Assembly: GCF_016026235.1 (NCBI RefSeq)
Contig: NZ_CP065613.1
DNA: 64,000 bases
From: Escherichia coli
GTDB taxonomy: Bacteria; Pseudomonadota; Gammaproteobacteria; Enterobacterales; Enterobacteriaceae
Strand: one strand, 5' to 3'
Part shown: positions 61,581 to 63,924 of the stretch, one piece after another
Layout of the letters: each line of letters starts with the position of its first letter
How positions within the stretch are numbered: position 1 is the stretch's first letter
Position numbers and translations under genes: made by a program
Notes under the pieces: model-generated
The model's input: the letters and a program-made list of their open reading frames with translations, nothing else
Database searches by the model: none
What the model was told of the DNA's origin: nothing

Positions 61581-61724
61581 ATGCGAAAAACGCAGGAAAA
61601 TAAACGCGTTAATCACCGAAAAGATGTGCTACGTGACCAGTTTTATCAGGGGGTTAATCCAGAAATAGCTGTGCCACTGAGAGAAATACTTAACAGGTAC
61701 AAAACTTCGGAGAAGTCAAAATGA
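61581..61724 (+). CDS. Small basic hypothetical protein (47 aa)
   Basis: ATG 61581 after SD cgaggt; stop overlaps next start. Confidence 0.4.
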   Translation: MRKTQENKRVNHRKDVLRDQFYQGVNPEIAVPLREILNRYKTSEKSK

Positions 61725-62068
61725 GCATGAATCTTATGGCTAAGGCCATGAATATAAAGGTTGGCAACCCACTGAGAAAACTGATTCTGATTAAACTTGC
61801 CGATAACGCCAATGATAATGGCGAATGCTGGCCTTTATATCAACATGTCGCTGACCAGTGTGAGGTGAGCAGATCGACAGTAAAAAGTCACATTAGGGCA
61901 CTGGAAGAGATGGGGCTTTTGAAAAGGGAATGCAGAAGAAAAGGAGAGCTTAACCAGTCAAACGTTTTTTATCTGACGCTGGATAATGCACAACAAATCC
62001 CACCAGAATCAGGTGGGGCAGGAGCTGCCCTAGGGGGTGCCCCTATTAAGTTGTCAAGCATGTTATGA
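61721..62068 (+). CDS. HTH replication-initiator-like protein, 3' end probably altered by IS insertion
   Basis: 115 aa; winged-helix-like segment; last ~12 codons read into the IS junction repeat. Confidence 0.45.
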   Translation: MSMNLMAKAMNIKVGNPLRKLILIKLADNANDNGECWPLYQHVADQCEVSRSTVKSHIRALEEMGLLKRECRRKGELNQSNVFYLTLDNAQQIPPESGGAGAALGGAPIKLSSML

Positions 62069-63502
62069 CCCCTGCGGGGTATAAAAAGTCCCGTCGCGCA
62101 TCATGGCGAACAGAACGTCGCAGCGTCGTCTCGCCAGGGCGATAAGCGCCTGATTGTGTCGTTTTCCCTGACTCATTTTGCGGGTGTAGTAAGCCCTGGA
62201 GAGCGGATCCCTGAGCGCGGCGAAGGCCGACAGGAACAACGCCCGTTTGAGAGCTTTATTACCCCGTCGCGAGGGATGCTCACCGCGTATTGACGAGCCG
62301 GATCGCCGAGTTACCGGCGCAAGGCCAGCATAAGCAGCGAGATGTGCGGCAGAGGCGAAGGCGCGGCAGGCGACCTCGGTGAGGAGTCTGGCTGCGGTCC
62401 TGACACCGACTCTGGGCATACTGGTCAGGACCGGGTAAAGAGGGTGAGCAAGAACTCGCTGTTCTACCTCAAGCGCCACCTCGTCTCTTTGCTTACGCAG
62501 CGTGATGAGCTGGAGTGCCAGACGTGGCAGTACTACGGCAGCGGCATTCGTGCCGGGAACGACGACGGTTTGTTCGGCCAGTGCCTGAGCTATGTCTGCT
62601 GCAAGGCGTTTACCCAGACGAGGCGCAAGTTTGCAGAGCTGGGCTGCCAGCTTCTTCTCACCCAGCGAAGCGAGTTTTTCTGGTGAGGGATATCGCTGGA
62701 GAAGATCGAGTACCGCCGGGTGCTCAAGTCTCGGACCGAGAACGCGCTCCAGTGCCGGATGTATCTGGGTCAGAAGGCCGCGGATACGGTTGCTGGCCTG
62801 CGTTGTCTGTGCGGCAAGATCATCATCGAAGCCGCAGAGCATGGAGAGTTCGGCGATTTGCTCGTCAGCCAGTTTCAGCGTGCGTAGCGCGTGAGGCAGG
62901 GTACGGGCAGCTTCGGCAATGATGGCAGCGTCACGAGCATCAGTTTTAGCTTCACCGGCGTGTAAGTCGGCTATGCGGCGCATGGCCAGTCCAGGGAGGT
63001 ATCCGACAAGGACTCCTTCTGAGCGGGCAACGGCGACAGGTAACGCACCGATGGTAGCTGGCTGATCAACAACCAGCAGTATCTGACCATGTTGTTTCAG
63101 GTCAGATATTAGCGACCTGAGTTTGTTTTCGTCGTTGGGTAATGCTTTATCGAACAGGCGTTTACCTGAACGATTAATGGCAACAGCGTGATGCGTATCT
63201 TTACCGACATCAACGCCGATAAAGACCTGGACGGATTCGTAATCGCTGGATTCGGTCATTCTGTCTCCCTTGTATATGGGTTAACCAGATAACCACGGGG
63301 AGCAGGTACCGGCATCCACGTTACAGACGGTCCCGGCAAAAGTGCCTGACCTGACCCCTATTAGCGGTTACCAGCGCCCCACCAGACCCGGTGACATCAC
63401 CCCCCGGATCATGGACGACTGGGGGCAGTAATCATGCCGGGTCTGGCTGGCTAACACCCCATTATAAGGGGTACGAATAAAGTAACGGGGCAGGAGCTGC
63501 CC
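62031..63502 (-). mobile_element. IS110-family insertion sequence (boundaries approximate)
   Basis: Single DEDD-type transposase ORF; no terminal inverted repeats seen; 16-bp GGGGCAGGAGCTGCCC at 62015-62030 and 63487-63502 flanks it. Confidence 0.7.
62063..63259 (-). CDS. IS110-family transposase/recombinase
   Basis: 398 aa; N-terminal RuvC-like motifs IGVDVGKDTHHA and KTDARDA; C-terminal GLAPVTRRSGSS...GNKALKRALFLSA. Confidence 0.85.
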   Translation of the reverse strand: MTESSDYESVQVFIGVDVGKDTHHAVAINRSGKRLFDKALPNDENKLRSLISDLKQHGQILLVVDQPATIGALPVAVARSEGVLVGYLPGLAMRRIADLHAGEAKTDARDAAIIAEAARTLPHALRTLKLADEQIAELSMLCGFDDDLAAQTTQASNRIRGLLTQIHPALERVLGPRLEHPAVLDLLQRYPSPEKLASLGEKKLAAQLCKLAPRLGKRLAADIAQALAEQTVVVPGTNAAAVVLPRLALQLITLRKQRDEVALEVEQRVLAHPLYPVLTSMPRVGVRTAARLLTEVACRAFASAAHLAAYAGLAPVTRRSGSSIRGEHPSRRGNKALKRALFLSAFAALRDPLSRAYYTRKMSQGKRHNQALIALARRRCDVLFAMMRDGTFYTPQGS

Positions 63503-63549
63503 CCAGAACCTATCACTCTTTTGAACCAGTCAATGAACCTAAAAACATT

Positions 63550-63924
63550 ATGTTCGAACATGTCCGAACGGAGTGTGAAAAAACTCCTGACCGTCACGAA
63601 GAAACCGACAAGGCATTCGAGGAAATATTCTGGTGTGCAGGCATGCGGAAAGCCGGGAAGAAAAACGCAGCTTCGGCATTCAGAACACAGTTCAGGGAAT
63701 GGCGTAAAACTACCAGGGGTACGGCAAGCGAGTTTGCCACGATGCTGGCAGACGATATTGCATGCAGGAATGGTAAGCAGTTCGGATTCGACAGGTTGTT
63801 ACCGTCGAGCTACCTGAACGGTCAGCGCTGGAACGACGAGAAGCCAGAAACCATTCAACCACAATCCAGACCATCATCCGCAATTACCGTATCGAAAACT
63901 GGCTACGTGTTTTTCGACAGGTGA
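63550..63924 (+). CDS. Hypothetical protein, possibly replication-module
   Basis: 124 aa ORF immediately right of the IS; frame differs from the simplest read-through of the upstream ORF. Confidence 0.4.
   Translation: MFEHVRTECEKTPDRHEETDKAFEEIFWCAGMRKAGKKNAASAFRTQFREWRKTTRGTASEFATMLADDIACRNGKQFGFDRLLPSSYLNGQRWNDEKPETIQPQSRPSSAITVSKTGYVFFDR

Follow-up and report, generated by a model that had tools for sequence, protein, structure and literature searches.

The replication-initiator gene of a lambdoid prophage on Escherichia coli contig NZ_CP065613.1 (assembly GCF_016026235.1) appears to be split by the insertion sequence (IS) ISEc20, a member of the IS110 family. The window, that is the whole stretch of 64,000 nucleotides analyzed here, contains two open reading frames (ORFs) on either side of this element: one encodes a helix-turn-helix (HTH) protein of 115 amino acids and ends within the left IS junction, the other encodes 124 amino acids and lies to the right of the IS. 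With a probability of roughly 85%, both are parts of a single O-like initiator gene of a prophage at att-lambda, and ISEc20 has inserted into a repeat array in the middle of this gene. The insertion took place without target duplication beyond one shared base. It is thus a routine inactivation of a prophage initiator gene by an IS, of a kind already known, and a predicted bridge RNA accounts well for the choice of target. The features on which this reading is built are as follows (L numbers designate the loci used for comparison).

61721-62068, plus strand: truncated HTH ORF, 115 amino acids; Pfam HTH_36, E=3.8e-13.
61721..62039, plus strand: native 5' portion of the O-like initiator gene (codons 1-106 and one further nt).
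62012..62030, plus strand: repeat unit 1, intact (GGTGGGGCAGGAGCTGCCC), dyad GGGCAG-GAG-CTGCCC; candidate iteron.
62031..62039, plus strand: native spacer TAGGG and first 4 nt (GGTG) of repeat unit 2 (TAGGGGGTG), equal to the last inter-unit junction of L027, L001, L003 and L004.
62040..63487, minus strand: ISEc20 (IS110 family), 1448 bp, ends set from empty sites.
62063..63259, minus strand: ISEc20 transposase/recombinase, 398 amino acids, full length; Pfam DEDD_Tnp_IS110 (PF01548), E=6.9e-49, and Transposase_20 (PF02371), E=1.9e-20.
63488..63502, plus strand: rest of repeat unit 2 (GGGCAGGAGCTGCCC), palindromic core intact.
63503..63924, plus strand: native 3' part of the initiator gene, including the 124-amino-acid ORF at 63550-63924.

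When the rebuilt region was compared with complete E. coli genomes and phage records, the matches were uninterrupted genes, annotated as "helix-turn-helix domain-containing protein" or "replication protein O" and always located between cII upstream and a Toprim primase/helicase gene downstream. All were single genes of 243-314 amino acids with 1, 3, 4 or 10 repeat units in their middle: one unit in Stx2_16002 (243 amino acids), three in phage 24B and in strain FDAARGOS_943 (258 amino acids), four in the 265-amino-acid gene of a sister prophage (L027, CP065611.1), and ten in strain E26 (314 amino acids). The unit reads GGTGGGGCAGGAGCTGCCC and is followed by a GGG or TAGGG spacer, so that the period is 21 or 24 bp. 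The closest phage relatives are the Stx phage vB_EcoP_24B (HM208303) together with Min27 and Stx2a_F451, with about 97% nucleotide identity over cII and O. In 24B, the gene order and the units are the same, and the gene is annotated "O, replication protein"; it is uninterrupted, whereas the copy in the window has two units and ISEc20.

The sister prophage supplied the empty site in the alignment to intact prophages that the sequence-only reading had proposed. Its identity to the window is 99.7% upstream and 99.9% downstream of the insertion, and its last inter-unit junction, ...GCTGCCC TAGGG GGTGGGGCAGGAGCTGCCC CCAGAACC..., equals the window minus 62040-63487 exactly. Across the rebuilt junction it reads exactly ...GCTGCCCTAGGGGGTGGGGCAGGAGC.... 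The 5' part of the gene, in which the HTH_36 winged-helix domain covers residues 17-67, matches PHROG replication-initiation families and is collinear with the intact genes of L001-L004 and L027. Both gene halves align, one after the other, to a single PHROG profile, phrog_270 ("replication initiation protein"). The intact single-gene homologues, the junction in L027 and the extension of phrog_270 over both halves together lead to the conclusion that the two ORFs are one gene cut in two.

The reading frames agree with this. The 115-amino-acid product comprises 106 native residues and 9 IS-encoded residues (APIKLSSML), and its stop codon lies 29 nt into foreign DNA, which confirms the earlier statement that the HTH ORF ends within the left IS junction and the 124-amino-acid ORF lies to the right. 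An exact 16-mer, GGGGCAGGAGCTGCCC, is present at 62015-62030 and 63487-63502 (n=2 in the whole window). Removal of the IS plus one copy of this 16-mer had been thought to join the upstream frame to a low-complexity frame, but deletion of 62031-63502 in fact produces one open frame of 732 nt (243 amino acids), which passes through ATG 63550 and reads ...ESGGAGAAPRTYHSFEPVNEPKNIMFEHVRT.... The frame breaks only when both 16-mers are retained. Precise excision of 62040-63487 yields an in-frame gene of 251 amino acids with two repeat units. The earlier doubt can be traced to a miscounted frame and to a native repeat taken for a target duplication. In annotations, both ORFs belong under a single entry, as a disrupted replication-initiator gene.

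The gene resembles lambda O and its origin in several respects. It follows cII and precedes a helicase/primase gene in the early-right operon, and it is laid out as a DNA-binding domain at the N-terminus, then 19-bp dyad units (GGGCAG-GAG-CTGCCC) arrayed in its centre at a spacing of about 24 bp, then an AT-rich stretch and a C-terminal domain. Lambda-type iterons are imperfect inverted repeats of 19 bp (PMC7466680). The most AT-rich 40 nt of the gene start at 63503, just after the array, although at 70% AT the enrichment is modest. Unlike lambda O, the initiator has an HTH_36 domain instead of Phage_rep_O at its N-terminus (the Pfam domain Phage_rep_O, PF04492, was not found in it, only HTH_36). 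Its repeat is unrelated and GC-rich and occurs in 1-10 copies, its origin is putative, and the downstream partner is a 968-amino-acid Toprim primase/helicase and not lambda P. The initiator works like an O protein but is not a member of the lambda O family in Pfam.

Comparison of three O types suggests to which part of the protein the repeat belongs. The O protein of mEp043 has a different N-terminal domain (Phage_rep_O) and shares its C-terminal domain with this initiator; in the same place, it carries three different palindromic repeats of 19 nt, spaced by 23-24 bp. Salmonella phage SI8 has the same N-terminal domain, one unit, and a different C-terminal domain. The tail SAITVSKTGYVFFDR is kept in all three types. 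The type of repeat thus goes with the N-terminal DNA-binding domain and not with the C-terminal domain. The check for iterons in the reconstructed gene, which the sequence-only reading had called for, accordingly did reveal an array of 19-bp dyad units; that the array acts as an origin is a conclusion drawn by analogy, and we judge it somewhat better supported than its negation. Assignment of the units as a cognate binding-site (iteron) array is probably correct, but it is the least certain step of the explanation.

The strongest competing explanation is that the array is a flexible linker, (GGAGAA-x-G)n, of variable repeat number without any role in origin function, so that the IS would do harm only by truncating the protein. 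The range of 1 to 10 copies among homologues, the sufficiency of one copy in deposited phages, and an AT-rich stretch of merely 70% AT fit this explanation; the 19-bp dyad, its spacing of about 24 bp at the position of the lambda origin, and the linkage of repeat type to the DNA-binding domain do not. On balance we regard a pure linker as the less likely alternative, though one to be taken seriously. The iterons of lambda also encode a linker. The origin and linker readings are therefore compatible.

It is very unlikely that the two ORFs are distinct genes with the IS between them, the other option raised by the sequence-only reading. Each ORF is open and has an ATG, and no Pfam domain was found in the 124-amino-acid ORF. 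Nevertheless, every intact homologue of 243-314 amino acids is a single gene, and none of the homologues compared has the two ORFs as separate genes. In addition, removal of the IS leaves the halves in frame, and phrog_270 covers them in order. ATG 63550 corresponds to the internal Met128 of the 251-amino-acid ancestor. Inspection of the sequence upstream of it detected nothing resembling a Shine-Dalgarno sequence or other ribosome-binding site, a promoter/terminator scan detected no promoter-like site on the plus strand between the IS end and 63550, and the gene caller of the source record leaves this ORF uncalled.

ISEc20 was identified by 99.4-99.9% identity over the full 1448 bp to annotated copies, whose records carry the annotation "IS110 family ISEc20"; full-length copies occur in 1119 complete E. 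coli genomes, and roughly 2,380 places with ISEc20 were located in all. The copy in the window differs from the common copy by 4 nt, all of them outside the non-coding left end. The element lacks terminal inverted repeats: its left end and the reverse complement of its right end are identical at 15 of 40 positions, which is near chance. Its ends were defined from the intact O arrays and from an rtcB-family allele (L016), which reads GGGGGGTGGGGC when empty, while the occupied allele reads GGGGGGTG, the IS, and then GGGGC. Comparison of the two alleles shows that the G-rich flanks are target DNA and that a single base is common to element and target. One G/C at the crossover is ambiguous, and 62039-63486 would be equally valid coordinates. 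Empty penicillin acylase sites (L013, L014) were also considered, but these are pseudogene alleles with a run of G and without the T, and were unusable.

Eleven other copies of ISEc20 have the same inner ends, CCCCTATTAAG...AAAGTAAC, and their flanking sequences are [G]GGGGGTG at one end and GGGG[G]C at the other. Including the window, the flanks of the 12 sites can be written as GGGGGTG and GGGGC around the element, or, in IS orientation, as CCCC, IS, CACCCCC. ISEc20 insertion is hence site-specific, with a conserved target and no multi-base duplication of it. In the window, 62031-62039 and 63488-63491 together make up this target (GGGGGTG followed by GGGC), and the insertion lies inside the second of the two units, between GGTG and GGGCAGG. 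The intact motif, GGGGGTGGGGC, arises only at unit junctions of the TAGGG type; it was found nowhere in the window, where 0.01 occurrences are expected by chance.

These sites also bear on whether the 16-mer could be a target-site duplication, with IS ends at 62031 and 63486. An exact direct repeat of 16 bp does abut foreign DNA on both sides, but tandem copies of this unit are also present in genes without an insertion, the 11 other copies lack any flanking duplication and conserve only the target, and empty sites reveal just one shared base. As TAGGGGGTG at 62031-62039 is native phage sequence, made up of the spacer and the start of unit 2, the left IS end is at 62040, 9 bp to the right of the 16-mer edge. 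The 16-mer occurs at both IS edges because of the native tandem array (unit 1 and the remainder of unit 2) and not because of transposition, and a repeated 16-mer within 64 kb is unremarkable, with about 0.5 pairs expected by chance. We consider a duplication highly improbable. The suspicion in the sequence-only reading that the repeat may misplace the IS ends was correct, and the 16-mer is unsuitable for locating them.

The insertion appears to be rare and confined to a few assemblies, although IS and target array are both common. The exact 115-amino-acid protein has been deposited (STL97335.1, "replication protein [Escherichia coli]"), and exact-protein look-up, the only route by which the insertion was found elsewhere, led to identical insertion DNA in three NCBI assemblies (GCA_900449985.1, GCA_000805835.1 and GCA_002466675.1). 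ISEc20 was present in the initiator array in none of the complete E. coli genomes searched, and the exact 33-nt pattern of the left junction had no match in genome-contig or metagenome-contig collections. A mis-join at the array during assembly is scarcely credible, since a 4.56-Mb contig of GCA_900449985.1 (L023) spans the IS and both junctions and matches the window without a difference over 12,280 bp, the left junction is common to independent assemblies, and both junctions have canonical ISEc20 target flanks, even though short-read assemblies often break at the array, leaving many partial N- and C-terminal fragments among the deposits, and two of the three contigs break off within the IS.

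Why ISEc20 selected this site can be addressed by comparison with published work on the family. According to Durrant et al. (2024, PMC11208160), the left end of IS110 elements encodes a bridge RNA that comprises one 5' hairpin and two stem-loops, the latter containing internal loops, and the words on the 5' side of the loops have the sequence of the top strand in the left target and the left donor (PMC11208160). ISEc20/ISSfl4 is listed among IS110 elements of the left-end type (LE-type) in the supplement of the same paper (PMC11208160). Folding of the ISEc20 left end (63487 down to 63260) led to the following predictions, in which the guide words are the left and right target guides (LTG, RTG) and the left and right donor guides (LDG, RDG).

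63308..63473, minus strand: predicted bridge RNA in the ISEc20 left end.
63473-63455 (RNA 15-33), minus strand: predicted 5' hairpin.
63451-63376 (RNA 37-112), minus strand: predicted target-binding stem-loop.
63428-63422 (RNA 60-66), minus strand: putative LTG, CUGCCCC, equal to the left target CTGCCCC.
63405-63398 (RNA 83-90), minus strand: putative RTG, GGGGGGUG, complement of the right target CACCCCC(C).
63375-63308 (RNA 113-180), minus strand: predicted donor-binding stem-loop.
63363-63355 (RNA 125-133), minus strand: putative LDG, UAAUAGGGG, equal to the tip of the IS right end.
63324-63319 (RNA 164-169), minus strand: putative RDG, GUAACG, complement of C+GTTAC at the tip of the left end.

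The target loop of the predicted RNA would thus match the target, and the second loop the IS ends. The site in the window matches the LTG at 7 of 7 and the RTG at 7 of 8 positions, and the four guide words did not co-occur in any of 20,000 mononucleotide shuffles of the left end. In an unconstrained minimum free energy fold, LTG and RTG pair with each other, owing to the near-repeat nature of the target; the RNA was therefore refolded with the guide words held unpaired. A degenerate relative (L022) has a G->U change in the LTG paired with a G->T change at the same target position, which amounts to one covarying position. A second relative (L021, 87% identical) could not be used for covariation, as its left-end tip is non-alignable. 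Taken with the published IS621 rules, the guide matches suggest that this site was chosen because the TAGGG-type unit junction creates GGGGGTGGGGC, to which the target-loop guides correspond.

With respect to known members of the family, ISEc20 shares with IS621/IS110 (PMC11208160; Hiraizumi et al., 2024, PMC11208158) a recombinase with DEDD and Transposase_20 domains, the lack of inverted repeats and of a real target duplication, and a long non-coding left end that is predicted to fold into a 5' hairpin and two internal-loop stem-loops. A TTGACA lies 12 nt from the right end of ISEc20 and might become part of a promoter rebuilt across the joined ends of the circular form; candidates for the -10 element in the left end (TACTTT, TTTATT) are weak, with a spacing of 15-18 nt. 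ISEc20 differs from IS621 in its target, which is the G-rich GGGGGTGGGGC and not a repetitive extragenic palindromic (REP) sequence, in having one base in place of a CT dinucleotide common to donor junction and target, and in that LTG and RTG are largely complementary to each other, owing to a target that is a near-repeat of C runs. Its mechanism, moreover, is a prediction from sequence. A literature search for "ISEc20" returned nothing on mechanism or target.

The proposed course of events would be the following. The bridge RNA of ISEc20 would pick the GGGGGTGGGGC made by a unit junction, and the element would insert in unit 2. The cell would then make only the 115-amino-acid HTH fragment, without the C-terminal domain and the conserved tail of O proteins, a tail that is common to O proteins adjoining primase/helicase genes. 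With the C-terminal half of the initiator lost, self-replication after induction should fail; judged from sequence, we consider this the probable outcome. The prophage could then not start its own replication after induction unless it were complemented or the IS excised scarlessly. IS110 elements excise scarlessly (PMC11208160), so that the lesion could in principle revert, and circularized ISEc20 would after excision carry the junction ...AATAGGGGCGTTAC.... A precedent is IS492 in epsG of Pseudoalteromonas atlantica (cited in PMC11208160), an IS110-family element in a coding sequence whose scarless excision can restore the gene. Compared with IS492, scarless excision of ISEc20 is a possibility here and not an observed switch. 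It would go much further, and we think it most improbable, to regard ISEc20 as a sequence-programmed, scarlessly reversible lock on prophage replication, which would use the unit junctions as a hard-wired target while the 115-amino-acid HTH fragment binds the units and blocks the replication of incoming phages with the same type of origin.

Several observations weigh against the account given so far. With regard to the bridge RNA, an Rfam scan of 61900-63700 at E<=1 yielded no bridge RNA family or model, its sole match being a chance one to an lncRNA, and target position -6 agrees poorly with the guide when ISEc20 sites are compared. Nor is there an identical 2-nt core in donor and target, such as the CT of IS621; the one common base is the single C of GGGG-C-GTTAC (donor junction) and CCC-C-ACCCCC (target). 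A GC core in the donor could be accommodated by wobble pairing, and an identical core dinucleotide is a property of IS621 rather than a formal criterion of the IS110 family. As to the array, it may be only a variable Gly/Ala linker. The deposited genomes of phages SI8 and Stx2_16002 have one unit, so that copy number is not critical, and both palindromic cores survive the insertion, so that any cis-acting site may still work. Another prophage of the same O type could complement the defect. Exact look-up in the protein collection found neither the reconstructed 243-amino-acid protein nor the 251-amino-acid protein, and the absence of the latter counts here as well. Finally, the survey of prophage genes runs to Q, and structural genes were seen in the sister prophage L027 only.

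The case is one of a putatively bridge-RNA-guided IS choosing a site that the phage itself creates by repeating probable origin units, and thereby likely disabling prophage replication. It provides ISEc20 with a set of natural targets and an assignment of its guides, and leaves the current understanding of IS110 elements and lambda-type initiators unchanged.

The prophage around the initiator is lambdoid in its layout, and further features of it are given below.

48880-50163, minus strand: pectinesterase-family gene (ybhC-like), beside which the prophage is integrated.
50297-51367: lambda-type integrase with Arm-binding domain, adjoining the ybhC-like gene.
60077-60814, minus strand: CI-like S24 repressor (Pfam).
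60875-61120, plus strand: Cro/YdaS-like protein (Pfam).
61259-61558, plus strand: CII (Pfam).
61581-61724, plus strand: conserved ORF of 47 amino acids, overlapping the initiator start (ATGA).

The integration locus is the classical att-lambda; the host genes to the left of the prophage are a Na/sulfate-type symporter and an aconitase-family gene. All prophage genes called on either side of the insertion are full-length: int, exo/bet-like, gam, kil, cIII, N, cI, cro and cII, and also the 968-amino-acid primase/helicase, ninB, ninE, rusA, ninH and Q. The order of immunity and early-right genes is the same in 24B, E26, FDAARGOS_943 and L027. The product of the 47-amino-acid ORF is hypothetical in phage SI8, and the ORF occupies the position of the DUF2740 gene of mEp043.

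The array region coincides with a recombination or domain-swap boundary. Mosaic joints between phages lie at the array or immediately behind it, at positions 530 and 568 of the rebuilt region (about 62030 and 63540 in the window). In some phages the similarity is limited to the sequence upstream of the array, in others to the sequence that starts about 40 bp downstream of the array. The initiator gene is also represented by dozens of "partial" HTH proteins deposited for E. coli, Shigella and Salmonella, either N-terminal pieces of 95-113 amino acids or C-terminal pieces of 126-158 amino acids. They probably reflect short-read contigs that break at the tandem array and not IS insertions.

Most of the ISEc20 sites examined were in prophage DNA (L005-L012, L017, L019, L020): in or beside a DUF551 gene, within the gene for the terminase large subunit, in the neighbourhood of a holin gene, beside a tail-fibre gene, and in the interval from a phage tRNA cluster to the terminase small subunit gene. 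This bias may be a true preference or may indicate where the G-rich motif occurs. Phage records of the LC5678xx series (L017:400-1858, L019:400-1858) annotate ISEc20 as 1459 bp; according to the empty sites, this length includes about 8 + 3-4 bp of conserved target, and the mobile unit is 1448 bp. On the minus strand at 63477-63503, just upstream of the bridge RNA region, the insertion has made a hairpin resembling an intrinsic terminator, formed by the unit 2 palindrome and T-rich bases of the IS left end (GGGGCAGCTCCTGCCCC GTTACTTTAT).

The primase/helicase gene starts about 32 nt past the window end (L023:12312-15218, 968 amino acids) and has a weak match to LAGLIDADG_3. Its homologues in E26, mEp043 and SI8 are 1881 nt long (about 626 amino acids), and the extra 340 or so amino acids could be an intein or a homing endonuclease insert. 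In L027, an IS4-family transposase gene (L027:15723-17069) lies between Nu1 and gpW, the expected place of the terminase large subunit, and this prophage may thus be crippled in a different way. The nin region contains a HigB-like toxin and HTH antitoxin pair (L023:16195-16778), which is also present in L027.

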